From a virus (lineage: Duplodnaviria; Heunggongvirae; Uroviricota; Caudoviricetes): a DNA stretch of 49,497 nt. Below, one piece after another: positions 16,884 through 47,146 of the stretch. The stretch spans positions 1 to 49,497 of the IMG/VR virus record IMGVR_UViG_2660238070_000012; one strand, 5' to 3'. The position numbers were made by a program, and so were the translations under genes. Positions within the stretch are counted from its first letter, which is position 1, and the number at the start of each line of letters is the position of its first letter. A model generated the notes under the pieces. That model searched no databases. It saw only the letters and a list, made by a program, of their open reading frames with translations, and had not been told where the DNA came from.

Positions 16884-18364
16884 GGTATGTTGTAGCTTGA
16901 GTAATCAATCTCTTTAGGATCTTTGATGTCTCGCATCTGTATTGCAAAACGCCTCATCATGTAGCCATAGCGAACAGCAGAAAGGATGTCGTCATTTAGC
17001 TTGACGATCTTCCCGTTCTCATCGCGGTGATACAGGCGAAACTCTTCAAAGAATGGCTCGCAGGTGTTAAATACCTTGAAACGACCGTCGAGCATCATGT
17101 CGCGTATCTCTGCTATCCCGGGTTCGACCGCATTACCTCCATCAGGCCATGTTGCATGATCTGGCAACATATCGAACCCAGCGTCGGCGTATTGTTCCTT
17201 GAGCTGAGCGCCGCCTCCCTTTTCGTGCTGATGCCCGTCATGAGGCCAAGCCGTAGGGGTGTTTTTGCTCCATGCTTTAACAGCACTCCATGCCTCTGTC
17301 GCCTTCTTCTGTTTGGCCTTCCAGACGCGAGAAAGATAAATCACGTCCTCGTCTTTATCCCACCAAAGCTGGATGTGTGCCTGTGGGTGATCCCATCCGA
17401 AGTCCATTGCATTGATGACGTAGAAGTGATCAGGACACTCGAACGGCTGACACTTAATAGTCTCTTCCGGTATCTGGAAGATTCGACCACTACCCATCGT
17501 AGGAATACCGCGAGCACGCGCCTCTCTCTCATGCTCGGGATAGGATGCGATGATTTGCTCTTTCTGCTCGTCGGTGTAGTGCTCAGCGTCATAGATGGTC
17601 ATGTTGACCACTTTCTGAGACTTGCTGGGATTCTTCAGGAACTTGGTAACAACGTCAGACATCCCCATCAGCGGGGTAAACGTCAGGATTGAGAATTGCC
17701 CGTATTTGTTGGTACGGGTAAGACCTTCGCCATAAATGCTGTATGGTGGCTCTTCGTCAAACCACACGCCGTGGATTGTGTCACCCTGCCAGCGAGCACG
17801 GCCTTGCGAGTATGGTTTGAAGTAGCAGATTGAAATGCCATCTTCAACGCCATCAGCCGTGTGATGCTTAACCAGAAGATGATCAACAAGGTTCGGAAAG
17901 AAAGGAGACTTCTTCCAGCTAATGATGTCTTCTTTCGGTATGGAACCGTAGCCTGGCTCACCATTCTCTTCGATGCGACCACACAGGATGCGTTGAGTCG
18001 TTTTGGTTACAGTCTCGTTTGTCTCGCCACCAATCCAAAAGACAACAGGCTCATAAAAACGCTTACCTTTCCACTCACCGCCATATTTACCATCAGCAGG
18101 ATAGCCTTTTGTGCCCGGATAACGCCCGGTAAGGTGAAACGCGACTTCAGCAGCACCAGTAAATGACTTACCAAGCTGGTTACCAGCCATAAAACAGCGC
18201 TCTGGATAGTCATGCCCGGCGTCGATGAACTCACGCTGTTTGCTGTATGGCGTAAATTCATATAGCAGGTGTGTGTTACGGTAGTTCTCTTCTTCTTCGA
18301 GTAGCTCGAGCAATTCGATTTGCTCTTCGTCGCTCAAGTTATCAAGAATCGCGTCCAGTTCCAC
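16868..18364 (-). CDS. Terminase large subunit, P22 gp2-like
   Basis: 498 aa (P22 gp2 is 499 aa). Position between TerS and portal. Confidence 0.9.
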
Positions 18365-18836
18365 GGTTGAATAGCTCCTTGATACGAGAGCGTCGCTTAT
18401 CGCGATCTCCCTTATCAGGTGTCACGTCTTCAACTTGCGACTGCTCTTTGAGGCCCAAATCACGGGCGATGATGTTAGCGTTGAGAAGGTCAGCGGCTGC
18501 GCCAGAGAATTTCTGGTCGTAGATGACTTTCTCCGCTCGCGTAGTGACTCCACAAAAACCTTCATCCGCGCGGAATCTTCGCCATGTTTCATCAGAAATA
18601 TCGAGAAATAAGCACAGCCCGGCGAGTGTCATCGCTCGCATCTTGGCGATAGGCTCTTGTATCACTTCACCCTGATACGAGAACGCCTTCATCTCCCATA
18701 GCGGGTTAGCTTCCACCCACTCGAAGTATTCACAACAAGCAGCCCACAGCGCCTCAGGCGATTCGAATTTAGGATTTCGCCCATGACTACTGCGGGCCTC
18801 CCAAAATCGGTTGCCCTTTGGTGCTGCCATATTCAT
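18342..18836 (-). CDS. Terminase small subunit, P22 gp3-like
   Basis: 164 aa, near-colinear with recalled P22 gp3 ([56 protein letters not shown]...). True start may be the second Met (18830). Confidence 0.85.
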
Positions 18837-18865
18837 CTCACTTAGTTGTTATTTCAGGTTGAGCA

Positions 18866-19108
18866 TCATGCTCCGGTGGTGAACAGGTCTAACGCTTCCT
18901 TCGATTTACGCACCGCTTCGATAGTTCGGGTCGTGATATCTGAATTAGCGCCACCTGACTGGAAGTGAATTTTGAATAGCTCAAGCTTCAGTTCGTCAGT
19001 GCCAATGAATTGAAATGCTTCTTCTGCGGCTGCGTTCTGGTTCATGACCAGTTTGTAAATCTCTAACTGGAATTTCTGTTCTTCAGTCATGGGAATAATC
19101 TCTGCCAT
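18866..19108 (-). CDS. Hypothetical protein upstream of terminase
   Basis: 80-aa ORF in the late operon between lysis and packaging genes. Confidence 0.5.
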   Translation of the reverse strand: MAEIIPMTEEQKFQLEIYKLVMNQNAAAEEAFQFIGTDELKLELFKIHFQSGGANSDITTRTIEAVRKSKEALDLFTTGA

Positions 19109-19555
19109 TGTTGGCTCCGTTTATCCGTTAAAAGGGATATCAGTTAAGTTATCCCGTGTAGGGTATAAGCCATTGTCGAGACCACTCATTGAATGGCCTC
19201 TGCAATAACCGATGTCTTTCCATCAGTCCGCCACCACAAAGAATCTTTTTTGCCATAAGGCTGGAGGTTCATCTTTCAGTGGCTGCCAGTGTTATTTCCC
19301 CACTTTCTGGCTTGGGTTGTTTCGCGGTACTGCCGTAACTGGTTGCCCAGAATAAATTCCGGTTTCATTATCAAGCCCACCCGTAGATAGGCTTTGTAAT
19401 GAACTGGCTCTTATCTCAACGCAGCCCCTTACCGCGCGCCAGATGCTCAACTTCAAGCATCAGCAATGAGATGTTTAATCTGGATTCACTCCAGAAGTGA
19501 TCACCACCCTGTCTACAGAGCCAGATGTGAAGGATGATGAGTAAAATTATCGCTA

Positions 19556-20023
19556 TCATCGAAGGCATTGCGTCCTGATGTATTCCTGAAGAGTTCTCAG
19601 TGCTGTTTGGTCGCGGATAATTCCGTCCCGGACACCGAGAACGTTTCGTCCAGCAACTGGAGAGAGTTCGACGGTGGCATCATTGCCCATGCCGGAGGCG
19701 CTGGAGGTTTCGGCTGAGGATGGCACAGGGCATTTTCCTTTGACGAGCACCCTGCCACCATTATCAAGCTTGCGCCGAAGAGCATCATTTTCAGCTTTCG
19801 CATTAGCCAACTCCTTCGTGTATTTTGCATCGAGCGCAGCAACATCACGCTGACGCATCTGCATGTCAGTAATTGCCGCGTTCGCCAGCTTCAGTTCTCT
19901 GGCATTTTTGTCGCGCTGGGCTTTGTAGGTAATGGCGTTATCACGGTAATGATTAACAGCCCATGACAGGCAGACGATGATGCAGATAACCAGAGCGGAG
20001 ATAATCGCGGTTACTCTGCTCAT
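19556..20023 (-). CDS. Rz: Rz i-spanin
   Basis: 155 aa. N-terminal 80 aa match recalled lambda Rz ([73 protein letters not shown]). C-terminus diverges from lambda. Confidence 0.85.
19597..19803 (-). CDS. Rz1: Rz1 o-spanin lipoprotein (embedded in Rz, +1 frame)
   Basis: ATG at 19803 gives [22 protein letters not shown]... with lipobox VAGC and Pro-rich segment. Embedded like lambda Rz1. Confidence 0.7.
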
Positions 20024-20496
20024 ACCTCAATCTCTCTGACCGTTCCGCCAGCTTCTTTGAATTTTGCAATCAGGTTGTCAGCCTTATGCTCGAACTGACC
20101 ATAACCAGCGCCCGGCAGTGAAGCCCAGATATTGCTGCAACGGTCGATTGCCTGACGGATATCACCGCGATCAATCATCGGTAAAGCGCCACGCTCTTTA
20201 ATCTGCTGCAATGCCACAGCGTCCTGGCTTTTCGGAGAGAAGTCTTTCAGGCCAAGCTGCTTACGATAGGCATCCCACCAACGGGAAAGAAGCTGGTAAC
20301 GTCCGGCTGCTGTTGATTTGAGTTTGGGGTTTAGCGTGACAAGTTTGCGAGGGTGATCGGAGTAATCAGTGAATAGCTCTCCGCCAACAATGACGTCATA
20401 ACCATGATTTCTGGTTTTCTGTCGTCCGTTATCAGTTCCCTCTGACCACGCCAGCATATCGAGGAACGCCTTACGTTGATTATTGATTTCCACCAT
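20020..20496 (-). CDS. R: Endolysin R (lambda-type lytic transglycosylase)
   Basis: 158 aa, essentially colinear with recalled lambda R ([49 protein letters not shown]...). Confidence 0.9.
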
Positions 20497-20803
20497 CTTC
20501 TACTCCGGCTTTTTTAGCAGCGAAGCGTTTGATAAGCGAACCAATCGAGTCAGTACCGATGTAGCCGATGAACACGCTCGTTATATAAGCGAGATTGCTA
20601 CTTAGTCCTGCGAAGTCGAGAAGGTCACGAATGAACCAGGCGATAATGGCGCACATCGTTGCGTCGATTACTGTTTTTGTAAACGCACCGCCATTATATC
20701 TGCCGCGAAGGTACGCCATTGCAAACGCAAGGATTGCCCCGATGCCTTGTTCCTTTGCCGCGAGAATGGCGGCTAACAGGTCATGTTTTTCTGGCATCTT
20801 CAT
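20480..20803 (-). CDS. S: Holin S (lambda class I holin with dual-start motif)
   Basis: 107 aa, matches recalled lambda S ([62 protein letters not shown]...). Met1-Lys2-Met3 dual start present. Confidence 0.9.
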
Positions 20804-20914
20804 GTCTTACCCCCAATAAGGGGATTTGCTCTATTTAATTAGGAATAAGGTCGATTACTGATAGAACAAATCCAGGCTACTGTGTTTAGTAATCAGATTT
20901 GTTCGTGACCGATA

Positions 20915-20960
20915 TGCACGGGCAAAACGGCAGGAGGTTGTTAGCGCGACCTCCTGTCAC
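20915..20960 (-). terminator. Candidate late-leader terminator (tR'-like hairpin)
   Basis: Perfect 8-bp inverted repeat CAGGAGGT...ACCTCCTG (20921-20946) followed on the minus strand by CCGTTTTG. Lies in the Q-S intergenic leader. U-tract is weak. Confidence 0.35.
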
Positions 20961-21239
20961 CCGCTTTCACGAAGATCATGTGTAGAAGGCCGCAGCGTAA
21001 CTATCACTGATGAATTCAGGATAGCCAGTGGCTACGGCTCAGTTTGGGTTGTGGCGACCGGTGCTGATCTCCGGTTTGCTGCAACTGCCTACAGCGGGCT
21101 ACGTGGCCACACCGAATCCAGCGAAAGATCCTTGCCCTTACACATCAGCCTGTGCATTCACCACAACGATAAGAGCACTGCGCGGCACCTTTCACCAATT
21201 CCGCGAGGTCTGCGGGTTCAACGCTCTTACCTGTTGTGC

Positions 21240-21330
21240 AAATAAAAAAAGCCACCGTTGCAACTTAAGAGTCACTAACGGCAGCTTATGCCAATAGTGT
21301 TGCTCATTTGCTCAATGATGTCAACACGTT
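21240..21330 (-). promoter_or_regulatory. Candidate late promoter (PR'-like) and Q-utilisation region
   Basis: TTGACA on the minus strand just downstream of the Q-like gene stop, followed by a GTTGCAAC palindrome and a T-run. Position is as expected for a Q-dependent late promoter. -10 element not clear. Confidence 0.3.
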
Positions 21331-21819
21331 CTATGCTACATGTTTAATTTTCTCTACACGTTTCCGATTTTTAAACGCACTATCCAGAACCGGGTAAATC
21401 ATAAACAACGAGGCATTAAGGATTTCGTCAACTTCCCGTCGACAGGTTGCGAGCGATGGTTTTTGAATGCGCACGCCGCCACGGCATAACATCTTGCGAG
21501 GTCTTGCGACGCGATGATAGTAAGATGCAATGGCGTGCTTGGAAGAGCCATGAGCGTAGTAGCTGAGGAGGATTCCAAAGGCTTTCTTGTCAATGTACAT
21601 GACGGAATCGACGACCTGAGAAATCAACATTCCATCATCATCATTACACATTGGCCTTGTCATAACTCTTCCCGGCTCTACGCTCTCCATGAACTTAGCT
21701 ATTACGCTGCTCATGCGCTTTTCCAGACGACCTGAATAAACCCATGCCCCCCACAGTTCAAGCCAGCCATTCAGCCAATCGTGCTGTTCTTTGGTGAGGT
21801 TTATTTCTCTTATGCTCAT
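21331..21819 (-). CDS. Late-gene antiterminator, Q-like
   Basis: 162-aa ORF immediately upstream of the late leader and holin, after the nin genes. Assignment is mainly positional; it is not lambda Q by sequence. Confidence 0.7.
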   Translation of the reverse strand: MSIREINLTKEQHDWLNGWLELWGAWVYSGRLEKRMSSVIAKFMESVEPGRVMTRPMCNDDDGMLISQVVDSVMYIDKKAFGILLSYYAHGSSKHAIASYYHRVARPRKMLCRGGVRIQKPSLATCRREVDEILNASLFMIYPVLDSAFKNRKRVEKIKHVA

Positions 21820-22004
21820 CGTCTTCCTCTCTTGCCCTGTTTGACCATCAGGACGCCGTTAACTATTACGTGACGCTCACCTTTGCTGTCTCGGTTGTAC
21901 TTGAGCACTGTTCCTCTTGCGCAGGAAAGCATCCTCGCCACTTCGGTCTGATTGCCTCGTGTCTGGATAAGAAGCTCTGGTATCGTTTGAATTGTGGCGT
22001 TCAT
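21816..22004 (-). CDS. ninH: NinH-like protein
   Basis: 62 aa with TIPELLIQTRGNQTEVARMLSCARGTVLKY, similar to recalled lambda NinH (KTIPDMLVEAYGNQTEVARRLKCSRGTVRKY). Confidence 0.7.
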   Translation of the reverse strand: MNATIQTIPELLIQTRGNQTEVARMLSCARGTVLKYNRDSKGERHVIVNGVLMVKQGKRGRR

Positions 22005-22363
22005 ACGTTCTCCAGTTCAGTGATTTTTATTCCAAGCCGTCCGCCTGGTACTTTCACACCACGAATTACGCGAATGTCATCGAATTGCTCGTCGTCTTCC
22101 GCAAATCCGGCGTGGATAAGGGAGTCGAGTAAACCCTTCAGGATGTTATCGAGGTCGCGGCGGCGGGAGTCTGGAACGTCTGCGATGACTTTGATGCGGA
22201 GTCGTGATTTGGTGAAAATGTCTAACTTGAGTTGGTGGATGATTTGCTGAACGTCTTTTCGGTATTTCTGTCCTTTAGCGCTGATGTAGTATTGGCTTCC
22301 CCGTCTTCGCCAGTAGGTGTTCACCGACGGCGGGTAAGGAAGCACAAACTGATATTCGTTCAT
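22001..22363 (-). CDS. rusA: Holliday junction resolvase RusA
   Basis: 120 aa. PYPPSVNTYW, RRRDLDNILKGLLDSL, GGRLGIKITE match the RusA family pattern (recalled DLP12 RusA: PWPPSNNRYY...RRRDLDN...GGRLELTITE). Confidence 0.85.
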   Translation of the reverse strand: MNEYQFVLPYPPSVNTYWRRRGSQYYISAKGQKYRKDVQQIIHQLKLDIFTKSRLRIKVIADVPDSRRRDLDNILKGLLDSLIHAGFAEDDEQFDDIRVIRGVKVPGGRLGIKITELENV

Positions 22364-22650
22364 GACTTAATCTTCCCCTCCTTCAGCAGTATCGCCTGCG
22401 TCCTGATCACGCCTTCGAGGTGGTAAAGTCTGGCGTCTTTGTTGTCGAGATTATGGGTGCGTCGGTCGATCTCCGCGTGGCAGTCACTACAAGCCCATGC
22501 ACCGATCAGGTCGTCAGGCTTCATTCCCGTTCCGCAAATTCCAGCCATCCGGTAATGTGCCAGAACTGTAGTTTCAGGATTACCATTGCATACGCCGTAA
22601 ATACGTACCTGGCATTCTCTGCCGCGCGCTTCTTTGCGTAGGTTAGCCAT
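22360..22650 (-). CDS. Cys/His-rich nin-region protein (YbcO/DUF1364-like)
   Basis: 96 aa with multiple Cys/His (CQVRIYGVC...CGTG...CSDCHAEID). Nin-region position next to rusA. Confidence 0.55.
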   Translation of the reverse strand: MANLRKEARGRECQVRIYGVCNGNPETTVLAHYRMAGICGTGMKPDDLIGAWACSDCHAEIDRRTHNLDNKDARLYHLEGVIRTQAILLKEGKIKS

Positions 22651-23372
22651 TAAGCAGCCTCCCCTGTTACTTTCAGCATTCCGTTATCGAGCAGCTTTCT
22701 GGTCAGCCACTGTTGACCACGCCCGGTGATTTTTGTGGTGAACGATATCTGTATTCCGTGATTTGTGTTGACCGCTGTTTCTTTCACTGCGAAATAGCCA
22801 CGATCCATATATTCCTGCATTGGCACATTGCGCCGGGAACCTGAAGCAATAAGGATTTTGTGATCGCGCATCCACGCAAACAGTTTGTTTGGACCAATAC
22901 CAACAACCTTTGCAAAGTTTCCAATCAAAATTCCACTGGCCTCGCCAACGCGATCGGCAAACTCAACTTTAGGTGCGGCAATTGCGAGCTGGTTTTCCAG
23001 TTGCATTTTCTGCTCAGCAAGATCAGCAGCAAGGCGCAACGCTTCTGGTAGCGTTTTGGGGATATTAACCGCAGTTTCTTCAAGCTCTCGCCAACGGTCA
23101 ACAAGACGAGCGGTGAATTCCGGCGACAACTGGGCTACAACGACAATACTGTCTCGCTTACCTTGTTCGCCCTCAAAAACGTAAGCCTCTACGCCACGAA
23201 GTAATCCTAAGTTATTGATTTTTTCGAAAACCACCATTGGGGGATTTCGGATCACACCTCGAGCCGCCAGTCGTTCAATAGATTGTTTCACCTTGTCATG
23301 ACGACTTCCCACCAACTCAGCGATTTCAATGCTTGTCATTTTGATGGCATTGCCATTCATTAACTCATTCAT
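22650..23372 (-). CDS. Phage antirepressor / regulatory protein (Rha-like N-terminus, KilA-C-like C-terminus)
   Basis: 240 aa. N-terminal winged-helix-like segment (TSIEIAELVGSRHDKVKQSIERLAARG) and C-terminal region typical of antirepressor KilAC domains. Family assignment by pattern only. Confidence 0.65.
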   Translation of the reverse strand: MNELMNGNAIKMTSIEIAELVGSRHDKVKQSIERLAARGVIRNPPMVVFEKINNLGLLRGVEAYVFEGEQGKRDSIVVVAQLSPEFTARLVDRWRELEETAVNIPKTLPEALRLAADLAEQKMQLENQLAIAAPKVEFADRVGEASGILIGNFAKVVGIGPNKLFAWMRDHKILIASGSRRNVPMQEYMDRGYFAVKETAVNTNHGIQISFTTKITGRGQQWLTRKLLDNGMLKVTGEAA

Positions 23373-23547
23373 CGTCTTCTTCCTCGTACATTGAGCTATT
23401 CGGATCGCTCATCAGTTCTGCGCAGCAGTGCTCACACACGTGAACTTCCAGCACATGCAGCTTCTGACCGCAGTTAGCGCACGTTAAAGCCCGCTCGACG
23501 CTTTCTTTCTGGTATTGAAGGGATTGGGATGGGCTAAGCATTAACAA
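23365..23547 (-). CDS. ninF: NinF-like zinc-finger protein
   Basis: 60 aa, near-identical to recalled lambda NinF ([51 protein letters not shown]). Confidence 0.8.
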   Translation of the reverse strand: MLMLSPSQSLQYQKESVERALTCANCGQKLHVLEVHVCEHCCAELMSDPNSSMYEEEDDE

Positions 23548-24484
23548 CCTCCATACAAACTTTCACGAATGCCGTTGCTACTTCTGCATTGATTGCGTTT
23601 CCATATCCAATAATTCGCTGATCTTGATTGCGCTTTGCCATTCTTCCCAGTGTGGACTTGCCTCGTCCCAAGCTTTTGGCAATGCCATTAACCATCGGGA
23701 ATGAGCCGGGTCTAACTGGACGATATTTTTCATCTCTACAGTAAAGCCAGTCTGCATCTCTCCAGAAGCCGTTAACCGGTAATGGGTACATAGCTTCACC
23801 GTCCCGGGAAGTTTCAAGCAGATTCTTGGGGTTCCGCTCTTGTCTTTTCCGCTGTAGCAATGCGTTGAACCTGTTGCATCGTTCGCTAAAGGAGTTTGCC
23901 ATCCAGCTAGTCTCACGCATCCAGATAGGTTCTGAATTCCCCTGCGTGTCTCTGGCTGAAAGTTGATATTTGTCGTTGGAGTAGGCCACCCAATACAATC
24001 GCTGCCTGATGTGCGGAGAACCGAAGCCCGCAGCGCAAATATCGGTACCTGCAGAGGTGTAGTTCGCACCTTCCAAGTCAGTTTGTACAAGGTCGAGCCA
24101 AGCGAGGCCGTCTGCGCTTGCAACCTGTTCGCCAATAACGATGCCAGGATTGCATTTTTCAATAAGCCAGAAGAATGCCGGCCATAAGTGCCGCTCGTCA
24201 TCAACCCCTTTTCCTTTGCCTGCCGAGCTGAAAGGTTGGCATGGGCAACTTCCTGTCCAGATACTCTTGTTGTCTGGCCATCCTGCCTTTCTAAGTGCAT
24301 AGCTCCAAACTCCGATTCCTGCAAAAAAGTGGTGCTGGGTAAATCCTCGCAAATCACCTGGTGTGACATCTTCAATACTCCTTTCATCTACATAACCGGG
24401 GGCAATTTCTCCAGCGTCAATTAAGTTACGCAGCCATTGCGCTGCATACGGATCTATTTCGTTGTAATACGCAGTCATCGTCAT
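23534..24484 (-). CDS. DNA (cytosine-5)-methyltransferase, orphan
   Basis: 316 aa from the ATG at 24484 (GAGGAA RBS, coupled to ninE stop). Motif I FAGIGV, motif [12 protein letters not shown], motif VI-like GEQV. No adjacent restriction endonuclease gene. Confidence 0.8.
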
Positions 24485-24657
24485 TTCCTCGCACGATGTC
24501 TTAGCCACCGGATATCCCACAGGTGAGCCGTGTAGTTGAAGGTTTTTACGTCAGATTCTTTTTGGATTGGCTTGCGTTTATTTCTGGAGCGTTTCGTTGG
24601 AAGGTATTTGCAGTTTTCGCAGATGATGTCGGTGAAACTTCGTATCTGTCGTCTCAT
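24481..24657 (-). CDS. ninE: NinE-like protein
   Basis: 58 aa from internal Met: [58 protein letters not shown], matches recalled lambda NinE. Confidence 0.8.
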
Positions 24658-25064
24658 TCGTACCTCCTGTCGGTAAATCTGACACCCTGACCAATAGCCC
24701 ATGCTGTCGTGTACTCAATCAGACTTGCCATACGCTTCACGCTCATCTGCGCGCTGCTTTCGCGAATGTTGACGTATTCGCCTTCAAGCCCGGGCAAAAC
24801 ATCAGCTTCCAGGTTTGTTGCCACTGCATGACCGCTGATCAACAAAACCTTCCATTGTTCCGGTTTTAACCATTTGCCGCACCATTGAACCTGACGTGCG
24901 ATATCCGCCAGCATCGCGTGAAATTTTGCGTTCTGGTCAAGGTTGCGCTTGTAGTCAGTAATGCGGATGGTGACTGGCTTGTCTTTATCGAGTGGTGTTG
25001 CGAGGATGGCGTTGATTGCGGCTTGCTGTTGTTGCTTGCTTCGGAGGAAGATTGTCTGCTTCAT
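24654..25064 (-). CDS. ninB: NinB recombination protein (Orf family)
   Basis: 136 aa resembling lambda NinB. Translationally coupled to ninE. Confidence 0.8.
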
Positions 25065-25066
25065 CG

Positions 25067-25381
25067 TTACTCCTTCACTTTGACTCCAGCAGCGCGGATG
25101 TTTTCCTCATAAGCATCCATTGCATCACCGAAGCCATTGGAATAATCAACAGTAAACCCTTTGGCTAATGCTTCTCTGCTGTCGATAAACTTTGGCGCGG
25201 TTATTTCAATAGCTGCTCGCGATGCCTGCCATAAAGTCCACCACTCATTTAAGGAGTGACGAATATCCATACTTGAAAATGCGAAGTACCTATCACCATT
25301 TCTTGCCTCGGTTATCATCTCGAATGGTAATCTCAATTTTTTGGCAACGTATTCTTCAAACTGCTTTCTTGATTCGTCCAT
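25067..25381 (-). CDS. Hypothetical protein
   Basis: 104-aa ORF tightly packed upstream of ninB. Confidence 0.5.
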   Translation of the reverse strand: MDESRKQFEEYVAKKLRLPFEMITEARNGDRYFAFSSMDIRHSLNEWWTLWQASRAAIEITAPKFIDSREALAKGFTVDYSNGFGDAMDAYEENIRAAGVKVKE

Positions 25382-28879: not shown

Positions 28880-29119
28880 ATTGGTGAGAATCGAAGCAAC
28901 TTGTCGTGCCAATCGAGCCATGTCGTCGTCAACGACGCCCCATTCAAGAACAGCAAGCAGCATTGAGAACTTTGGAATCCAGTCCCTCTTCCACCTGCTG
29001 ATCTGCGACTTATCAACGCCCACAGCTTCCGCTGTCTTCTCAGTTCCAAGCATTGCGATTTTGTTAAGCAACGCACTCTCGATTCGTAGAGCCTCGTTGC
29101 GTTTGTTTGCACGAACCAT
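28826..29119 (-). CDS. cII: Transcriptional activator CII
   Basis: 97 aa from the ATG at 29119: MVRANKRNEALRIESALLNKIAMLGTEKTAEAVGVDKSQISRWKRDWIPKFSMLLAVLEWGVVDDDMARLARQVA..., matches recalled lambda CII. Confidence 0.92.
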   Translation of the reverse strand: MVRANKRNEALRIESALLNKIAMLGTEKTAEAVGVDKSQISRWKRDWIPKFSMLLAVLEWGVVDDDMARLARQVASILTNKKRPAATERSEQIQMEF

Positions 29120-29150
29120 ATGTAAGTATTTCCTTAGATAACAATTGATT
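29095..29150 (+). promoter_or_regulatory. PRE (CII-activated promoter for repressor establishment)
   Basis: TTGCGTTTGTTTGCACGAACCATATGTAAGTATTTCC on the reverse complement contains the TTGC-N6-TTGC CII-binding repeats overlapping the cII start, as in lambda. Confidence 0.75.
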
Positions 29151-29198
29151 GAATGTATGCAAATAAATGCATACACCATAAGTGTGGTTTAATTTGAT

Positions 29199-29230
29199 GC
29201 CCTTTTTCAGGGCTGGGATGTGTAAGAGCG
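29199..29230 (-). promoter_or_regulatory. nutR (boxB hairpin and boxA)
   Basis: boxB GCCCTGAAAAAGGGC (reverse complement of 29199-29213) and boxA CGCTCTTACA (reverse complement of 29221-29230) between cro and cII. Confidence 0.85.
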
Positions 29231-29237
29231 GGGTTAT

Positions 29238-29447
<210 letters not shown>

Positions 29448-29464
29448 TTAGTACATGCAACTAT

Positions 29465-29528
29465 TATCACCGCTAGAGGTAAAATAGTCAACACGCACGG
29501 TGTTAGATATTTATCCCTTGCGGTGATA
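29465..29528. promoter_or_regulatory. Right operator OR1-OR2-OR3 with divergent promoters PR and PRM
   Basis: Three 17-bp operator sites: TATCACCGCTAGAGGTA (OR1-like), CAACACGCACGGTGTTA (OR2), TATCCCTTGCGGTGATA (OR3), between cro and cI. Confidence 0.9.
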
Positions 29529-29535
29529 GATTTAA

Positions 29536-30252
<717 letters not shown>

Positions 30253-30255
30253 TAA

Positions 30256-30287
30256 AAGGTCGCACAGAAGTGCGGCCTTTTTTATTG
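30256..30287 (+). terminator. Candidate rho-independent terminator downstream of cI
   Basis: Hairpin GGTCGCAC-AGAA-GTGCGGCC (one G-U pair) followed by CTTTTTTATT, starting 4 nt after the cI stop. Confidence 0.5.
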
Positions 30288-30497
30288 GTAGTGATCCACA
30301 CATTGTGCTAACGCATTAATTAGCATTAATATTTAGCTTAATCACAGAACAGCTAAAAATATTTTATCGATAAATATATACATATCAATGAGATAAATAA
30401 AAATGATGCATTTTGTAGCTAATTAATGATTTAGCTACCATTGCCCTGCTTATTTGAAATAAGCTATCATCACCATAACCAAGCATATGGGGGATTT

Positions 30498-31433
30498 ATG
30501 GATACTAAAAAACGAGCTCAAAAAGCAGCAGCAATGTCAGCAATCGTTAGATCAGCTCCAAAGCCAACTCACACAGGATTAATGGCGACAGGTGTTTCTT
30601 GTGCTGTTTTGCCTGATGGTCGCAGAGTGGTTTCAATGCAAGGTGCAAATGGATTGGCAGAAACATTCGGTGTATCTGTTGGCTCAAAAATGCCAAGATG
30701 GGTACCAAATGGGAAGCCAGGTCAATTACCATATGTTCTCCAAGCAAATGAGCTTCAGCCATATATTTCTGATGAACTAAGAGAAGCGCTAGCAGAACCA
30801 ATTGTATATAAAAATACATCAGGTGCAGGTGTCGCTTATGGCATTGACGTTACTATGCTACCAGCGCTTTGCGAGGCATGGACAGATGCTGAGAGGGATG
30901 GAGCCCTACGACAAAAGCATCACTTGAATACAGCTGCAAAAGCCAAAGCGCTCTATAAAGCTCTAGCTAGAGTTGGCGCCGTTGCGCTCGTTGATGAAGC
31001 GACTGGATACCAAAAAGAACGAGAGCGCGATGAACTGGCAAAACTCCTTGAGCAATTCATCGCTAAAGAAATGCGACCATGGGTAAGCACATATCCGCCA
31101 GAATTCTTTGAGGAGTTATGTAGACTCAGAGGAGTCCCATTCAAAGCAAACATGCGGAGACCGCAATACTTTGGTCATCTTGTGAATAACATAACTTATG
31201 ACCGCATGGCACCAGAGCTAAGAAATGCGCTAAAGGAAGAAAGAGCAAAAGCAAAAAAGGCAGGTGCAAAAATGCATCAGTTTCTATCAGAGGGAACTGG
31301 ATATGGTCTTCTTCAAAAGAGACTTACAGGGGTAACAACACTCATGCAAGCAAGCGATACTTATGAAGATTTCATCCAATTGCTTGATAAGGTACACCCT
31401 CTACTAACCGTAGAAGATATTGACGCAGAATAA
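30498..31433 (+). CDS. Hypothetical protein occupying the rexA-rexB locus (candidate phage exclusion factor)
   Basis: 312 aa from the first in-frame ATG (30498) with GGGGGA RBS. Preceded by a very AT-rich ~200-bp promoter-like region. Ala/Lys-rich with no recognised catalytic motif. Confidence 0.7.
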   Translation: MDTKKRAQKAAAMSAIVRSAPKPTHTGLMATGVSCAVLPDGRRVVSMQGANGLAETFGVSVGSKMPRWVPNGKPGQLPYVLQANELQPYISDELREALAEPIVYKNTSGAGVAYGIDVTMLPALCEAWTDAERDGALRQKHHLNTAAKAKALYKALARVGAVALVDEATGYQKERERDELAKLLEQFIAKEMRPWVSTYPPEFFEELCRLRGVPFKANMRRPQYFGHLVNNITYDRMAPELRNALKEERAKAKKAGAKMHQFLSEGTGYGLLQKRLTGVTTLMQASDTYEDFIQLLDKVHPLLTVEDIDAE

Positions 31434-31442
31434 CTTTATTGC

Positions 31443-31469
31443 CCCGGCCTCAGCGCCGGGTTTTCTTTG
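31443..31469 (+). terminator. Rho-independent terminator (lambda timm-like) after the rex-locus gene
   Basis: Perfect stem CCCGGC-CTCAGC-GCCGGG followed by TTTTCTTTG. Recalled lambda sequence left of PL has the same hairpin. Confidence 0.6.
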
Positions 31470-31624
31470 CCTCACGATCCCATTCACCCAATAACACATA
31501 ACCTATTGTATTTATTTGAAAATTAATAGATACAACTCACTATACATCGCAATTCAGATCTCTCGATCACCTCCCAAGCCACACAACCCTGCAAAAAATA
31601 AATCCATATAAAAAACATACAGAT

Positions 31625-31695
31625 AACCATCTGCGGTGATAAATTATCTCTGGCGGTGTTGACATAAATACCACTGGCGGTGATACTAAACACAT
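31625..31695 (+). promoter_or_regulatory. Left operator OL3-OL2-OL1 and promoter PL
   Basis: AACCATCTGCGGTGATA (OL3), TATCTCTGGCGGTGTTG (OL2), TACCACTGGCGGTGATA (OL1), with -35 TTGACA (31659-31664) and -10 GATACT (31682-31687). Confidence 0.9.
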
Positions 31696-31723
31696 CAGCA
31701 GGACGCACTGACCACCATGAAGG

Positions 31724-31757
31724 TGATGCTCTTAAAAATTAAGCCCTGAAGAAGGGC
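31724..31757 (+). promoter_or_regulatory. nutL (boxA and boxB)
   Basis: boxA-like GCTCTTAAA followed by boxB GCCCTGAAGAAGGGC (31743-31757) in the PL leader. Confidence 0.85.
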
Positions 31758-31929
31758 AGCATTCAAAGCAGAAGGCTTTGGGGTGTGGTGAAGGGTTCAT
31801 GGATGGGAATATGTCGCACGTAAAGCGGCGAGGCCTGCGGAACTATTGCCGAATTGAAGTCGGCCGAAGCAGGTCGAAATGGGTCTCCCACCTACCACAC
31901 CACCAAAGCTAACTGACAGGAGAATCCAG

Positions 31930-32256
31930 ATGGATGCACAAACACGCCGCCGCGAACGTCGCGCAGAGAAACAGGCTCAATGGAAAGCAGCAAATCCCCT
32001 GTTGGTTGGGGTAAGCGCAAAACCAGTTAACCGCCCTATTCTCTCGCTGAATCGCAAACCGAAATCACGAGTAGAAAGCGCACTGAATCCGATAGACCTT
32101 ACAGTGCTGGCTGAATACCACGAACAGATTGAAAGCAGCCTGCAACGTATTGAACGCAAGAATCAGCGCACATGGTACAGCAAGCCACGCAGTGAAATGG
32201 GGGTGACTTGTGTTGGTCGCCAGAAAATGAAATTAGGCAGCAAACCACTTATTTGA
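31930..32256 (+). CDS. N: Antiterminator N
   Basis: 108 aa from the ATG at 31930: MDAQTRRRERRAEKQAQWKAANPLLVGVSAKPVNRPILSLNRKPKSRVESALNPIDLTVLAEYH..., matches recalled lambda N through ~aa 85 then diverges. Confidence 0.9.
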   Translation: MDAQTRRRERRAEKQAQWKAANPLLVGVSAKPVNRPILSLNRKPKSRVESALNPIDLTVLAEYHEQIESSLQRIERKNQRTWYSKPRSEMGVTCVGRQKMKLGSKPLI

Positions 32257-32264
32257 GGTGAGAT

Positions 32265-32588
32265 ATGGAAGCATTAGTAGTAGAGCGAAGCGAGGATGGC
32301 TACTGGACGCACCCAGAATACGCCAACCTGTTTGGGGATAGAGAGGTAATTTCAGTTGATGAGTTCAGATCTTTCTGCAAGCAGCATGGCATTGAATCAT
32401 CAATTGTTGAAATGGAAAACGACAACAATCAAACGGTAATTGACGCGTATTTTGAAGATGGGAATCCAAACATCAGTGGATGGGAGCCAAGCATGCCAGA
32501 TGGAGAAGGATGGTTTGTCGGTTCGATTCACGATACAGAAGACGGTCCGATCTGCGTTTGGTTCAGAAATGTAGATAAGGCCGCATAG
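32265..32588 (+). CDS. Hypothetical acidic protein (early-left accessory gene)
   Basis: 107 aa, rich in Asp/Glu. Located where lambda carries ral/sieB. RBS GAGGTGAG upstream. Confidence 0.55.
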   Translation: MEALVVERSEDGYWTHPEYANLFGDREVISVDEFRSFCKQHGIESSIVEMENDNNQTVIDAYFEDGNPNISGWEPSMPDGEGWFVGSIHDTEDGPICVWFRNVDKAA

Positions 32589-39368: not shown

Positions 39369-40544
39369 ATGCTGCTATCTGACATCCAAATAAAAAGAGC
39401 AAAACCGAAGGACAAACCCTATACGCTTAACGATGGTATGGGGCTATCACTCCTGATCGACACAGCGGGCAGTAAAGGCTGGCGTTTTCGCTATCGCTTT
39501 GCAGGTAAGCCTAAGATGATTTCCTTTGGCGTATATGGCGATGTGTCGTTGGCACAGGCACGTACCAAACGTGATGAAGCGCGTTCGATGTTAGCCAACG
39601 GGATAAACCCAAGTGAAGCCAGAAAAGCAGATAAGATTGCTTTGCAGTTCGCGCATGAGAACAGCTTTGAGTCTGTGGCCAGAGAATGGCACTCATCGAA
39701 AAAAGCCACCTGGTCAGAGGGTTATGCAAAAGAGGTTCTCAATTGTATGGAAAAGGATATTTTTCCTTTTATCGGCCAGCGCCCAATTGAGCAGATTGAA
39801 CCATTAGAACTGCTAACCGTCCTGCAAAAAATAGAGAAAAGAGGTGCGCTAGAGCAAACCAGTAAGATCCGCCGCCGCTGTGGTGAAGTGCTTCGTTATG
39901 CTGTTGCCACTGGTAGAGCAAAGTATAATTTTGCACCCGATTTAGCTATCGCACTCAACAAACCTAAAACCCAACACTTCCCGTTCCTGACTGAAAGCGA
40001 GTTGCCCGAGTTCGTTAATGCTCTGGATAACTATCAGGGCAGTTTAGTTACCAAATACGCCACGCAGCTGTTGATGCTAACAGGCGTGCGAACAATTGAA
40101 CTACGTGCAGCGGAATGGGCTGAGTTTGATTTAGATAATGCCTTATGGGAGATCCCCAAAGAACGGATGAAGAAACGCCGCCCCCATCTGGTTCCGTTAT
40201 CAACTCAGGCGATCAATATCCTGAAAAAGCTGCAAGAAATAACAGGGAATTACAGCCTCGTTTTCCCTGGCCGGAATGACGTCAGTAAACCAATGAGCGA
40301 AGCCAGCATCAACAAAGTGATAAAACTACTGGGTTATCACGGTCGGTTAACGGGTCACGGTTTCAGGCATACCATGAGCACCATCTTGCATGAGCATGGG
40401 TTTGAAAGTGCCTGGATTGAAATGCAGCTTGCGCATGTTGATAAGAACTCTATTCGAGGTACTTACAATCATGCGCAATATATTAAAGATCGACAAGTAA
40501 TGATGGAATGGTACGCTAGCTTATTAAATACGACCTGCTATTAA
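39369..40544 (+). CDS. int: Tyrosine recombinase / phage integrase, P4/IntA-like family
   Basis: 391 aa from the ATG at 39369 (MLLSDIQIKRAKPKDKPYTLNDGMGLSL...). C-terminal GHGFRH...RGTYNHAQY catalytic region. Paralogous to the integrase at 1-1158. Confidence 0.9.
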   Translation: MLLSDIQIKRAKPKDKPYTLNDGMGLSLLIDTAGSKGWRFRYRFAGKPKMISFGVYGDVSLAQARTKRDEARSMLANGINPSEARKADKIALQFAHENSFESVAREWHSSKKATWSEGYAKEVLNCMEKDIFPFIGQRPIEQIEPLELLTVLQKIEKRGALEQTSKIRRRCGEVLRYAVATGRAKYNFAPDLAIALNKPKTQHFPFLTESELPEFVNALDNYQGSLVTKYATQLLMLTGVRTIELRAAEWAEFDLDNALWEIPKERMKKRRPHLVPLSTQAINILKKLQEITGNYSLVFPGRNDVSKPMSEASINKVIKLLGYHGRLTGHGFRHTMSTILHEHGFESAWIEMQLAHVDKNSIRGTYNHAQYIKDRQVMMEWYASLLNTTCY

Positions 40545-41474
40545 ATCCAGCATGAAACAAATATGGTGAGTAATTTGATACTGTTTGTTTTTTGGCAACC
40601 CAGGGAAATGCCTTACAGTTGGTTGACTATTGTAATAATAATAGTTAAGACCAATGTTGCTGCCAAACTGGGTTGGATGTTGGGGAACAAGATTTGTAAT
40701 TTGATCTGAAACATCTAAAAATTTTGCAGTAACATTTGAACTTCCTCGTTGCGTGTTGCTTGATACAAAATGACGAATCCAAACTGTATTCGCTTGTAAA
40801 TTCTTGAACACCAAATGTGCGGCAACAGCAGAAGGTTGACCACCTCCAAGATCTAGTACCTGGCCAGTAATTGTATAATCGCCAAATCCTAAGTAATTTT
40901 GTCCCACGAATTGATGTGCGTGCGTGAAAAGTTCCGGCCCATTATAATCAGCATTTTTTGCTAACTTTCTAAAGTTATCGCTAATAATAATTAACTTCGA
41001 CAAAGGAAGAAGAGCGCACTGATTAGGAAGCATTTTATTATTTAAAACAACATGATAACTAATCAATTGATTTGTCGCCAACAACTGAATATCAGAGTTG
41101 GATAATGATGGATTATCATATAGAAGTGCAACTCGTCTATTTAAGTTAGCATTCAACCAATTATTAATATCATTAATCGTTGTATTGGGCTGAATAAGAT
41201 ATCCAGAGATGATATTATTTTTATTTGTTAATACACTTGATAAATTTTGATTTAAAGTTAAGACGTTATTGTGTGAAGAAAAATCTTCCTGATAAGGATT
41301 AAGGATAACAATTATGTCAGAATTCCAAACATTTAAACATGTTAATAAATTTCTCGTATTGACGTTAATTGGTTCTAAAATTGGTAGCAGACCATTTAGG
41401 CTAACTCCCTTCGCAACGAGGTCCCTAAGGCATAATAACTCTGTACTTCTCGCATACAAATATGGGCTATACAT
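40524..41474 (-). CDS. Hypothetical protein, second gene of an AT-rich two-gene cassette
   Basis: 316 aa, Asn/Leu/Ile-rich. Low-GC codon usage unlike the flanking prophage. 3' end overlaps the integrase stop by 21 bp convergently. Confidence 0.65.
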   Translation of the reverse strand: MYSPYLYARSTELLCLRDLVAKGVSLNGLLPILEPINVNTRNLLTCLNVWNSDIIVILNPYQEDFSSHNNVLTLNQNLSSVLTNKNNIISGYLIQPNTTINDINNWLNANLNRRVALLYDNPSLSNSDIQLLATNQLISYHVVLNNKMLPNQCALLPLSKLIIISDNFRKLAKNADYNGPELFTHAHQFVGQNYLGFGDYTITGQVLDLGGGQPSAVAAHLVFKNLQANTVWIRHFVSSNTQRGSSNVTAKFLDVSDQITNLVPQHPTQFGSNIGLNYYYYNSQPTVRHFPGLPKNKQYQITHHICFMLDLIAGRI

Positions 41475-41495
41475 AACTTACAACTCCTGAGGATA

Positions 41496-42377
41496 TCAAC
41501 AAATTTTAATTTTTACATCCATCAAATTCATGATGAATTCTTTTTGCTTTCTTGATAATGGTGTTGCATAACCTAAAACACGTAAACATGCTGGAAGAGA
41601 ATAAATATAATCCAAAAAAACTTTATCGTTACATCTTTTTTTCATAGCAGAGATAAAGTATTTATTTGCTATGTTTAATGGCATCTGCATGAATATCTCT
41701 TTACAATATTCATAAACCAATCCGTTAGGCATATTTATTTTAGTTGAAGTGTAATCTTCTATTATAGCTAAGAACTCTTCCTTTCTAAGAACTGAAAACA
41801 AGCTGTCACTTTTAATATAATCAATATTTGAATCTGCCTCCTTAATGACACTCAATTGATCTTTTTTATTCAAAACCATAACTCCCACTCTGGGGAGATT
41901 TAAAGCACAATATTTACTTGCATACTCTGGATGTGTAACTATATACACTTTATCAAAAACATCCAAATAATCAGGGGCTTGAGTAATCAACCTTTTTGGT
42001 GAATCATACTCTGTCTTAATCTCGTAAGCTGTAGACGTACCATTAAACACCGCAACATCCACTATAGAGTTTTTAATTGGTAACTCTATGGACGACGAAC
42101 TTGTTTTTGGGCTGTGCTTACCGAATATTATTTTATTGACAAGTGCTGTCTTATAAACATATTCATTTCTATAATTCAGACGCAAAAAATCATATAATGA
42201 TGTAAATAAATCCCTTAGTGAAATCTCATGTTCATTATTATCATTGTTTGAAAACAGTGTTTCATAGCAGTAAGAATCAAAACTCCCAAATAAATCCGAA
42301 ATATCCTTACCTTTTGCTAAGGATGAAAAAATGGGGCGACGGAAAAATTTAGCATATTCCTTTTTATTATGACTCAT
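41496..42377 (-). CDS. Hypothetical protein with PD-(D/E)xK-like nuclease motif, first gene of AT-rich cassette
   Basis: 293 aa. IVDVAVFNGTSTAYEIKTEYD gives D-x10-E-x-K spacing typical of restriction-endonuclease-fold nucleases. Very AT-rich. 21-bp gap to the downstream gene. Confidence 0.65.
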   Translation of the reverse strand: MSHNKKEYAKFFRRPIFSSLAKGKDISDLFGSFDSYCYETLFSNNDNNEHEISLRDLFTSLYDFLRLNYRNEYVYKTALVNKIIFGKHSPKTSSSSIELPIKNSIVDVAVFNGTSTAYEIKTEYDSPKRLITQAPDYLDVFDKVYIVTHPEYASKYCALNLPRVGVMVLNKKDQLSVIKEADSNIDYIKSDSLFSVLRKEEFLAIIEDYTSTKINMPNGLVYEYCKEIFMQMPLNIANKYFISAMKKRCNDKVFLDYIYSLPACLRVLGYATPLSRKQKEFIMNLMDVKIKIC

Positions 42378-43056
42378 TACTCATACTCTATAAACATCAT
42401 GCAATTTGATAAGTTATGACGAATTCTCACCATCCAGTTACTACCTGTACATACTAATCAAAAAAAACGAGTACGCAAGATACGAAAGTACTTTTCTTGT
42501 TCACCAGTTAGCTTACCTTGATCCTCACCAGCGACTGGAAGATAGGTAGCAGTATATGTGGAAACCTTCCCCTAGCTAGGTCTACAAACGTAGTTTGGGC
42601 ATTTAGGCTCCACGATTCACGGTTTGACACGGCCTGATATCTGCACATTCGTTTTGATATGCAGCAATCGTGAAAAAGGAAAATATACGCTCGACAGACC
42701 AAAACGGCACTACACCGCACCCGCCTGCGGTTTTCATATCACTAAAAATTTTCAGCCTGGATTTTTTACAAACGATACCGCCAGTCCGTGCCAGTCCTCG
42801 AGATGTACTGCGATACAGGAACTGAAAAGAATGAAAAGAAATTCATTTTTTTTCAGTTTTACTGTCCGTCGAATCTATGGCCTGAATACGCAACTCTATG
42901 ATATTAAATGGATAATTAATTTTAGGTGTGTGATTTTATGAAGGTTTGTGAAACATGAAGAAGATAACCAGTTGAAAAATAATAATTTTATGACCGTATA
43001 AACTGAAATCCTGTGTTCAGGTTCCGGGAACAGATCGGCCATTCCCGACGCATACT

Positions 43057-43329
43057 TTACCCATTCTTTTGCGCAGCCAGCAGCAACTTTAAAGCCTTTT
43101 CCCGTTCCTCGGGTGGAATTGCATCAATCAGCTCTTTAACCCTTCCCTGCCCGTTCAGCGCGCTTGGACTAACGGAATGGGAGAAAGCAACATTCATCAC
43201 AAACGAGTGACCGCACTCCACATTAGAGCAATAGCAGTACACATCGTACAGTTGTGGGTGTTTCCTGTTTGTTTTACCTATCCGTGCTACTGCCTGACAT
43301 GTGGGGCAGTACATTCTCATCATCTTCAT
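43057..43329 (-). CDS. Ogr/Delta-family zinc-finger late transcription activator
   Basis: 90 aa: MYCPTCQ...VYCYCSNVECGHSF gives the C-x2-C...C-x4-C pattern of P2 Ogr / P4 Delta. True start may be an internal Met. Confidence 0.7.
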   Translation of the reverse strand: MKMMRMYCPTCQAVARIGKTNRKHPQLYDVYCYCSNVECGHSFVMNVAFSHSVSPSALNGQGRVKELIDAIPPEEREKALKLLLAAQKNG

Positions 43330-43394
43330 CGTTCTGTGCCCTATACTGTTGCCCGCCAGAAGAAGGGATTTGGATCCCTACCTCTTGTTCTGAA

Positions 43395-43590
43395 CGTGTA
43401 ACACTGGTAACACGTGTAACGCTATTGATTTAAAAGGATTTAATCTGTTACCAGTTAGCAAAATCAAGAGGTAACGCGTGGTAACACACCATTTTTTGTT
43501 ACCTCTGTTACCAGTCAGTATTTTTGACTGGTAACACTGAAGAACCGCATCAGTAACGGGTGTTACCTCTGTTACCAGTGTTACCTCATA
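43395..43590. repeat. Iteron cluster (GGTAACA / TGTTACC) downstream of the primase gene; candidate ori/crr
   Basis: At least 12 copies of the heptamer GGTAACA or its complement TGTTACC in both orientations within ~190 bp (for example TGTTACCTCTGTTACCAG twice). Confidence 0.6.
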
Positions 43591-43611
43591 AAAATAAGAC
43601 TCACGCGATAA

Positions 43612-46299: not shown

Positions 46300-46706
46300 A
46301 GCAGCACCTCCTGACCTTCCGGCTTCACAAATTCAAAACCTTCGGGTAGTTCGCCATCAGGTGCTCCGAAAATAATATCCCGGTAAACCTCACGCATCTC
46401 TGTGACACCAAAAACTGACAGGCGAATATTTTCTGACATAAAGCCTGGTTTAAGCATTTTTTCCAGTTTCTCTGCGGCCAGTATGCAACCAGCATCAGCC
46501 CCAAACTCATTCACCCACGGCATTTCAATATGGTAAATAATATTACTCACCACTTTTTCGTGGGAGAGTTCTATTCGTTCGCCATCTTCAATATAAACAG
46601 GTTCATTATGAACACGCACCATTAAGGAAATGAATGCATCAGCAATGTAGTAGCGTAAGACTGCTGTTCGTAAAGCATGCGCCTTTAAATTTTGATTATT
46701 ATTCAT
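46296..46706 (-). CDS. Hypothetical protein upstream of the primase (epsilon position)
   Basis: 136-aa ORF translationally coupled (ATGA) to the primase gene. Confidence 0.5.
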   Translation of the reverse strand: MNNNQNLKAHALRTAVLRYYIADAFISLMVRVHNEPVYIEDGERIELSHEKVVSNIIYHIEMPWVNEFGADAGCILAAEKLEKMLKPGFMSENIRLSVFGVTEMREVYRDIIFGAPDGELPEGFEFVKPEGQEVLL

Positions 46707-47135: not shown

Positions 47136-47146
47136 AATGGCAACCT

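Follow-up and report, generated by a model that had tools for sequence, protein, structure and literature searches.

Which gene does a lambda-immunity prophage of E. coli carry where lambda has rexA-rexB, and what might that gene do for the lysogen? For lysogen-expressed exclusion at the site beside cI, Rex is the archetypal case, and a different occupant of that site invites the question whether it plays a comparable part. The question is raised here by a 49,497-nucleotide stretch of caudoviricete DNA (IMG/VR record IMGVR_UViG_2660238070_000012, positions 1 to 49,497; 'the window' below means this whole stretch), in which the immunity region runs in the order cro (minus strand), OR, cI, cassette, OL/PL and N. 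The cassette, 1189 bp at positions 30254-31442, is a self-contained accessory ('moron') unit made up of a terminator, a predicted sigma-70-type promoter of its own and one gene, whose product is a true member of the P63C family (PF10546, PHROG 2384). Comparison of the cassette with its relatives indicates that this product is most likely an autoregulated, sequence-specific DNA-binding protein. A role in exclusion within the lysogen, of the kind known for BstA and Rex, is the reading that we tentatively favour.

A single-gene cassette at the cI-N hotspot

The limits of the cassette are sharp. In a blastn comparison with lambda (NC_001416), positions 29100-30253 are 97.7% identical and the match ends one base past the cI stop codon; similarity is back at 31443, which is the base after the rexB stop codon and the first base of the CCCGGCCTCAGCGCCGGG timm hairpin. 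This alignment confirms the breakpoints that a first-pass annotation, made from the letters alone, had put at the cI stop codon and the terminator hairpin, and it sets the junctions at 30253/30254 and 31442/31443, with no lambda match anywhere in 30254-31442. The surrounding immunity region had been described at the same time as lambda 'almost base for base'. That description holds for the cI/OR/cro side, at the identity just given, and fails on the right flank, where PL/OL, nutL and N are 84-87% (about 85-86%) identical to lambda as against 97% to phage HK542.

The exchange has the same limits in other phages. In HK542, ev099 and HK106, all of lambda immunity, similarity to the window is lost at the cI stop codon (30248-30263) and regained at exactly 31443, with different cargo between the two points: two hypothetical open reading frames (ORFs) in HK542, an NYN-domain gene in ev099, and hicAB plus one ORF in HK106. 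Because these junctions are common to phages with other cargo, the cassette sits in the already known cI-N swap hotspot, a mosaic site described by Degnan et al. 2007, at least as that work is cited in PMC8585504. The same replacement principle, with differing cargo, applies to lambda-immunity phages HK542/HK244, ev099, HK106/mEp234, mEp332, CL707 and HK544, and GenBank EF120455-61 hold further cargos at the cI-N site; in the phage collection, no record has the cassette of the window. The proposal of a clean cassette swap at the rex position is thereby upheld. The newcomer is not a rex variant by sequence: neither RexA nor RexB (Pfam PF15969 / PF15968) matches, P63C is the sole domain in the ORF, and there is no DNA similarity to rexAB.

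The interior of the cassette is laid out as an independent transcription unit (Table 1). An intrinsic terminator right after cI had been proposed, and the hairpin at 30254-30281 bears this out, with 12 pairs, a folding free energy (dG) of -18.1 kcal/mol and z = -5.3, none of 200 shuffled sequences being as stable. It is kept in cassettes L003-L006, is predicted to end the PRM/PRE transcripts after cI and, owing to an upstream A-tract, looks bidirectional (30254-30287). The AT-rich region of about 200 bp that had been noted beyond it was likewise recovered. When 16 cassettes are aligned, the promoter proves to be conserved, with a TTGACA-like -35 element, an invariant TA...T in the -10 element and fixed spacing between them, and a purine-rich GAGG/AGGA block occupies the Shine-Dalgarno position of homologous cassettes. 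The product has 311 residues, the 312 first given being reached only when the stop codon is counted. Since the ORF ends 9 nt before timm (hairpin 31443-31460, dG -12.4), the gene is predicted to use lambda's terminator as its own 3' terminator. The idea that the gene has 'its own promoter and terminator' is thus half right: the predicted sigma-70-type promoter and a 5' terminator that would stop the cI transcript belong to the cassette, and the 3' terminator is lambda timm. Control of the cassette by CI was considered and ruled out, as no lambda operator occurs within 3 mismatches inside it; lambda operators are found at OR and OL only.

Homologues of the gene keep company with repressors of many kinds. 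Three different cI-type repressors are each followed, ~255 bp downstream, by an 81%-identical homologue that stands between cI and N, and an 84%-identical one lies downstream of an Mnt/Arc-type repressor in Morganella prophages. IMG/VR contigs have the 100%-identical protein behind lambda cI in some cases and, in others, behind an unrelated 235-aa repressor with helix-turn-helix (HTH) and S24 domains. HTH+S24 repressors of several unrelated types make up 12 of the 20 upstream neighbours scanned. More distant examples include Salmonella phage SPN9CC, in which a homologue directly follows cI, and the S. pyogenes prophage Javan515, in which one stands between repressor and integrase. The gene is thus strongly linked to a strand and a neighbourhood that are active in lysogens. 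Its orientation with cI, the terminators on both sides, the conserved promoter, the lack of a CI operator and the repressor-linked relatives together strongly favour expression in the lysogen, independently of CI.

The cassette also moves as a unit between heteroimmune prophages, and its junctions are the last ~28 nt of cI and timm. For example, the identical cassette behind the 235-aa repressor (L101:2728-3982; also L105) retains 28 nt of the lambda cI 3' end together with timm, and a 29-nt remnant of the cI 3' end lies upstream of a cassette found next to tail genes (L003:5715-5743). The repressor's last codons are part of the mobile unit and probably form its recombination junction. A different form of mobility is suggested at 16 of 76 genomic loci, from diverse phyla, where a ~75-aa ORF and a ~300-aa IS1-like DDE transposase flank a P63C homologue that is on the opposite strand. 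At the three loci checked (L045:2873-5205, L047:2865-5250 and L064:2422-5348) this three-gene unit is contained within conserved terminal inverted repeats, e.g. GGTGGTGTCTCAGTTTGAAAT, which suggests that at such loci the P63C gene is a passenger inside an insertion sequence (IS).

The P63C protein and its promoter dyads

The product had at first been said to contain no recognised motif, which is not so. Pfam P63C (PF10546), a domain named after p63 of Myxococcus phage Mx8, matches residues 183-269 (E 6.6e-23; 81.6 bits against a cut-off of 26.1), and PHROG 2384, a family of unknown function, matches the full length (aa 4-306 of 311, E 6.2e-106). RefSeq already labels the protein 'P63C domain-containing protein' (WP_021552633.1), in two genomes of sequence type 131 (ST131), and the identical cassette is present in 2 of 5426 complete E. 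coli genomes. Homologues fall into at least 1568 clusters, mostly of 310-350 aa, and full-length identity is ~40% across Proteobacteria, Actinobacteria, Planctomycetes, Verrucomicrobia, Acidobacteria and Chlamydiae. Each of 69 diverse homologues that were aligned has the P63C match, and D166, E167, T169, G170, Q172, R175 and E191 are invariant among them. An invariant VDEATGYQ..R motif (aa 165-175) lies just upstream of the Pfam P63C segment, so that both this motif and the conserved N-terminal domain fall outside the Pfam model, which spans aa 183-269 only. Because dN (nonsynonymous divergence) from ~80%-identical homologues is 0.13-0.14 while dS (synonymous divergence) is saturated, which leaves no numeric dN/dS ratio obtainable, the comparison indicates that the gene is under purifying selection.

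An AlphaFold2 model of the protein (predicted local distance difference test, pLDDT, 78) places a basic helix at the N-terminus, then an alpha+beta domain (~aa 20-135) modelled with confidence, and a C-terminal half that is helical. Remote-homology and structure-based searches, which had been proposed as the way to place the protein, succeeded in identifying the family (P63C, PHROG 2384) and gave no solved relative in the PDB: Foldseek found no PDB match for the model, and a PDB profile search found no solved relative by sequence. In the BFVD structural search Mx8 p63 was the second-best match (E 1.3e-4), and weak matches carried the names 'Regulatory', 'Repressor domain', 'BRO N-terminal' and 'Antirepressor'. 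Hits to designed pentatricopeptide repeat (PPR) proteins in the PDB sequence search were spurious, the matches being summed weak repeats. A reading of 'ALVDEATG' as a Walker-B or DEAD-box element was ruled out, as the protein lacks a Walker A motif and a helix is predicted for the segment. The literature searched yielded no functional study of the P63C domain or PF10546.

The case for DNA binding comes from the AT-rich spacer in front of the gene. The dyad GCTAA-N8-TTAGC occurs twice in the whole 49.5-kb window, at 30307 and 30418, and both copies are in this spacer. The pentamer GCTAA/TTAGC is found 6 times in the regulatory region against 0.39 expected, a 15-fold enrichment (P ~4e-6), and the distal dyad stands at -191 in every cassette that encodes the identical protein. 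Across the 16 divergent cassettes (60% mean column identity) the half-sites TAGCTAA/TTAGCTA are invariant and the 8-nt spacer is variable; the dyad abuts the TTGACA-like -35 element, AGCT(T)AA follows the -35 element, and AGCTA overlaps the -10 element. A survey of 1.02 Mb from 123 loci then ties the sites to the gene. Each of the 33 copies of GCTAA-N8-TTAGC precedes, by 49-201 nt, a P63C gene of the group with at least 60% identity, and a second dyad, GCACGT-N4-ACGT[GA]C, has 7 copies, every one of them upstream of a P63C gene of the group with 35-53% identity, which includes L0095 of phage 933W. There is also a third type, TGCTTGCA...TGCAAGCA, found repeatedly in hosts that belong to unrelated phyla. 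A perfect 7-mer dyad is present in 72% of 104 distinct upstream regions and in 24% of the windows used as controls (P = 5e-25).

A promoter overlapped by conserved sites of dyad symmetry, which co-vary with the protein subfamily, is the pattern by which autoregulated DNA-binding proteins are recognised, and the P63C cassettes show it. Since the dyad alters together with the protein and is retained across phyla, the most economical candidate for the dyad binder is the cassette's only product, and the P63C protein is most likely an autoregulated, sequence-specific DNA-binding protein. The SlyA/RovA consensus, TTAGCAAGCTAA, has the same TTAGC/GCTAA half-sites at a different spacing. Nonetheless, binding of the dyads by a host factor, for example one of SlyA type that counters H-NS, is unlikely, since other subfamilies carry other dyads in unrelated phyla and the spacing differs from that of SlyA.

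Table 1. Features of the cassette and its flanks, in window coordinates
Feature	Position	Strand	Sequence elements and basis
Lambda-type cI repressor gene	29539..30252	+	237-aa ORF; up to and including its stop codon, 97.7% identical to lambda DNA
Intrinsic terminator, 5' edge of the cassette	30254..30287	+	AAAAGGTCGCAC-AGAA-GTGCGGCCTTTT and T-run; terminator scan
AT-rich regulatory region	30288..30497	+	28% GC over 30300-30499
Distal dyad, candidate operator	30307..30324		GCTAA-N8-TTAGC; one of only two in 49.5 kb
Proximal dyad, candidate operator abutting the -35 element	30415..30438		GTAGCTAA-N8-TTAGCTAC; perfect 8-nt inverted repeat
Sigma-70-type promoter (predicted)	30441..30470	+	-35 TTGCCC, 18-nt spacer, -10 TATCAT; promoter scan
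Third palindrome, in the promoter spacer	30448-30464		GCTTATTT-G-AAATAAGC; palindrome scan
Shine-Dalgarno-like element	30489..30494	+	GGGGGA, 3 nt before ATG; read from the sequence
P63C-family gene	30498..31433	+	ATG 30498, TAA 31431-31433; 311 aa and stop
Lambda timm terminator	31443..31468	+	CCCGGC-CTCAGC-GCCGGG and T-run; homology resumes at 31443; terminator scan
PL promoter with OL1, flanking, downstream of timm	31659..31687	+	TTGACA-17-GATACT; perfect lambda operator at 31669-31685

Several further features of these loci deserve record. On the minus strand of the window, a sigma-70-like site at 30361-30388 (10/12 consensus positions; TTGATA-16-TAAAAT) faces left toward the terminator at 30254-30281 and could yield a transcript of ~100 nt; its TATCAA box is kept in several cassettes. 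An Rfam scan of 29300-32300 returned nothing but sub-threshold matches to the terminator hairpin. The Morganella loci (L007-L009) are immI-like, with the Mnt-type repressor and the P63C cassette on one strand and Arc with a Bro-N/ORF6N antirepressor on the opposite one; the promoter and dyads are kept there and the upstream terminator hairpin is missing. In 933W the dyad upstream of L0095 reads TGCACGT-N4-ACGTGCA (L015:3817-3835), and homologues in Serratia, Xenorhabdus and IMG/VR contigs are preceded by the same dyad.

From 25069 to its end the window is 99.98% identical to a prophage of ST131 strain 4993 (L002), and over 10184-25075 the late, lysis and nin regions of the two are only 85-98% identical, with gaps. 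By this comparison the two are mosaic relatives that share the immunity-to-integrase half and differ in the late half. Beyond the prophage integrase, at ~39369-48614 of the window (L002 29117-38362, 99.98%), is a P4-like satellite region, for which the ST131 annotation gives a sce7725/sce7726 pair, Ogr/Delta, and DUF927 primase-like, Icd-like and P2-family capsid-like genes. The position of sce7725/7726 is a usual site of satellite defence hotspots.

Possible roles in the lysogen

What would a lysogen gain from such a protein? The answer that we put forward, as a tentative choice with somewhat less than an even chance of being right, is that the P63C protein might play a BstA/Rex-like exclusion role. 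It is proposed because of the slot, the linkage to lysogeny, the tight autoregulation of what may be a dose-sensitive protein, and a motif near the N-terminus that is like one in BstA. The two-domain product would bind the GCTAA-N8-TTAGC dyads upstream of and within its own promoter, with a possibly KilA-N-like N-domain recognising the DNA, and this self-binding would keep the level of the protein low and constant in the lysogen, independent of CI. The C-terminal half, which contains the VDEATGYQ motif and the P63C domain, would be the effector, and it may act on a target conserved across bacteria; a universal target is suggested because this half is highly conserved across phyla. The lysogen would then be served by interference with incoming phages or other mobile DNA, as it is by RexAB and BstA. 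A DNA-binding product is in itself compatible with exclusion and with a regulatory (conversion) function alike.

A number of observations count against an exclusion role or the steps that lead to it. None of the 5027 defence models of PADLOC v2.0.0 matched the protein; this is the 2023 library, later systems lie outside its coverage, and its BstA positive control worked. No NCBIfam family matched either, the search giving noise only (SutA, E 0.87). Identity of ~40% across phyla is unusually conservative for a defence sensor, and the immediate neighbours of non-phage copies are mostly transposases, not defence genes. Several relatives adjoin genes of Bro-N/Ant antirepressor type, and L0095 of the Shiga toxin 2 (Stx2) phage 933W (36% identity) is on the lytic strand, in the nin region next to roi; both settings suit a regulatory role just as well. 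Within the window, the promoter matches only 9/12 consensus positions. The identity of the dyad-binding factor rests on comparative inference, and the resemblance to BstA, set out below, has a probability of 24%, covers a core of ~30 columns and stops short of the C-domains, which are unrelated. The exclusion claim is kept modest because no defence model matches and no defence-island neighbours are seen. A more far-reaching version, which we consider unlikely, is that P63C proteins are a large unrecognised class of single-gene, self-regulating exclusion or abortive-infection factors, borne by the lysogeny modules of prophages and by IS elements across phyla. The KilA-N-like domain would then read the dyad as its own operator and possibly as an aba-like self-immunity tag, and the VDEATGYQ and P63C segments would form a novel effector domain that acts on replicating foreign DNA.

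Some of the same evidence could be claimed for a transcription regulator of lysogenic conversion, that is, an autoregulated DNA-binder that alters genes of the host or of other prophages without blocking phage infection. The co-variation of promoter dyads with protein subfamily strongly suggests sequence-specific DNA binding, which such a regulator would need, and the BFVD neighbours include a 'Regulatory protein' and a 'Repressor domain protein'. Bro-N, KilA-N and Ant domains were reportedly described by Iyer et al. 2002 as shuffled modules of viral transcription regulators, and P63C belongs to this domain group, as its Pfam description also has it. Against a regulator, neither the 49.5-kb window nor 1 Mb of related loci has any further copy of GCTAA-N8-TTAGC, so that no regulon can be seen. 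It is difficult to square a host-specific regulon with the presence of the same dyad type, and of a ~40%-identical protein, in unrelated phyla and in IS elements, and the invariant acidic and polar residues of the C-terminal half suggest more than DNA binding and dimerisation. We judge a conversion regulator to be unlikely. An antirepressor-like factor, one that modulates the switch by acting on the repressors, or on the choice between lysis and lysogeny, of its own prophage or of competing ones, seems a good deal less probable. Relatives do often adjoin Bro-N, AntA/ANT, ORF6N and P22_AR genes or immI-like regions, the slot itself adjoins cI, and there is a parallel in RexA, which has been reported to bias the lambda switch (bioRxiv 10.1101/2021.04.19.439022; PMC11077077). 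However, the identical cassette stands behind unrelated repressors (~20% identity) and Mnt, and so is not specific to a single repressor; a constitutive antirepressor on the lysogeny strand would destabilise lysogeny, and for IS-borne copies there is no prophage switch to modulate.

Those IS-borne copies count in favour of selfish cargo, in which the gene would aid the maintenance or spread of its carrier as an addiction-type toxin under autorepression, an anti-defence factor or an accessory factor in DNA transactions. Carriage inside an IS1-like unit with conserved terminal inverted repeats, the constant occurrence as a single gene on mobile elements, and tight autoregulation, which is typical of dose-sensitive or toxic products, would all suit such cargo. 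On the other side, no partner gene of antitoxin type accompanies it; the protein has no similarity to known toxins, nucleases or anti-defence proteins, and its place on the lysogeny strand beside repressors speaks for a gene that benefits the lysogen, not for one that works in transfer. Selfish cargo is in our estimation improbable. A neutral hitch-hiker, or a remnant in decay, with no current function is suggested by the gene's rarity in E. coli, given above, and is hardly credible: the ORF is intact and under strong purifying selection by the dN and dS values, the promoter and candidate operators are conserved, and the family comprises more than 1500 clusters with invariant residues.

The P63C cassette beside Rex, Bro-N and BstA

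The hotspot, the swap principle and the P63C domain family were already known. No paper found in the literature searched describes how the operators are arranged, the linkage with lysogeny modules across phyla or the presence of the gene inside IS elements. The repressor-adjacent position has already yielded RexAB and BstA, and a third, unrelated cargo that recurs there in prophages of Gram-negative and Gram-positive bacteria is a well-founded candidate for functional testing. The family it represents, with its >1500 sequence clusters in many phyla, includes L0095 of the Stx phage 933W. Should the protein turn out to act in defence, the known systems would gain a widespread one with a single gene, which PADLOC (2023 library) leaves undetected; should it turn out to be a regulator, an orphan viral domain family would be given a defined DNA-binding specificity. 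For either outcome the analysis supplies cheaply testable predictions in the form of a promoter with an approximate start site (near 30477, for a transcript that would run to timm, the cI transcript being expected to end at 30281-30287), three candidate operator dyads and a set of residues for mutation.

RexA/RexB and the P63C cassette occupy the identical slot between the cI stop codon and timm, and both point the same way as cI. They have no sequence or domain similarity, and the P63C cassette consists of one gene rather than two, with no membrane component predicted. They also differ in expression: rexAB is co-transcribed with cI from PRM, whereas the P63C gene stands behind a strong terminator and has a predicted, CI-independent promoter of its own.

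Proteins of the Bro-N/KilA-N/ANT type share the layout of an alpha+beta DNA-binding N-domain and a helical C-domain, are frequent neighbours of P63C genes and give weak structural echoes in the searches. Pfam Bro-N, KilA-N, ORF6N and ANT matched none of the 69 family members, even at E <= 10. Their genes are usually on lytic or Mnt/Arc-controlled transcripts, in contrast to the P63C gene with its place on the lysogeny strand.

The closest likeness in form is to BstA of Salmonella phage BTP1 (st313-td), a protein of 307 aa with a KilA-N-like domain at residues 32-147, for which abortive infection has been shown (PMC8585504). Both are single proteins of ~310 aa with a two-domain layout, encoded immediately downstream of a prophage repressor, a position that the P63C gene has in the window and in homologues. 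Alignment of the two families with hhalign pairs aa 29-186 of P63C with aa 23-165 of BstA (E 8e-4, at the 24% probability already cited); the score of 34.8 compares with 16.4 +/- 3.1 and a maximum of 27.1 in 150 column-shuffled controls. The ~30-column core is a beta-hairpin-plus-helix motif, 'AVLPDGRRVVSMQGANGLAETFGV' in P63C and 'GVLNDGTPYLTGRGLAEMCGV' where BstA's KilA-N-like domain starts. Membership of the BstA family was rejected, since the PADLOC BstA model PDLC02356 did not match the window protein or five homologues at E <= 1 (BstA control, 1.9e-124) and the BstA-like C-domain PF26567 matched neither the window protein nor any of the 69 family members. It is plausible, from these alignments, that the N-domain shares a BstA-type DNA-binding domain without such membership. 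The two systems differ in how they are expressed, bstA lying 88 bp after cI in BTP1 and being presumed to share the repressor's promoter (PMC8585504), whereas the P63C gene has a predicted promoter of its own behind a terminator. Finally, both genes have a short DNA element at the 5' end: in BstA this is aba, which consists of direct CCCGCC repeats and is functionally important, and in the P63C cassette it is the conserved, inverted GCTAA/TTAGC dyads.

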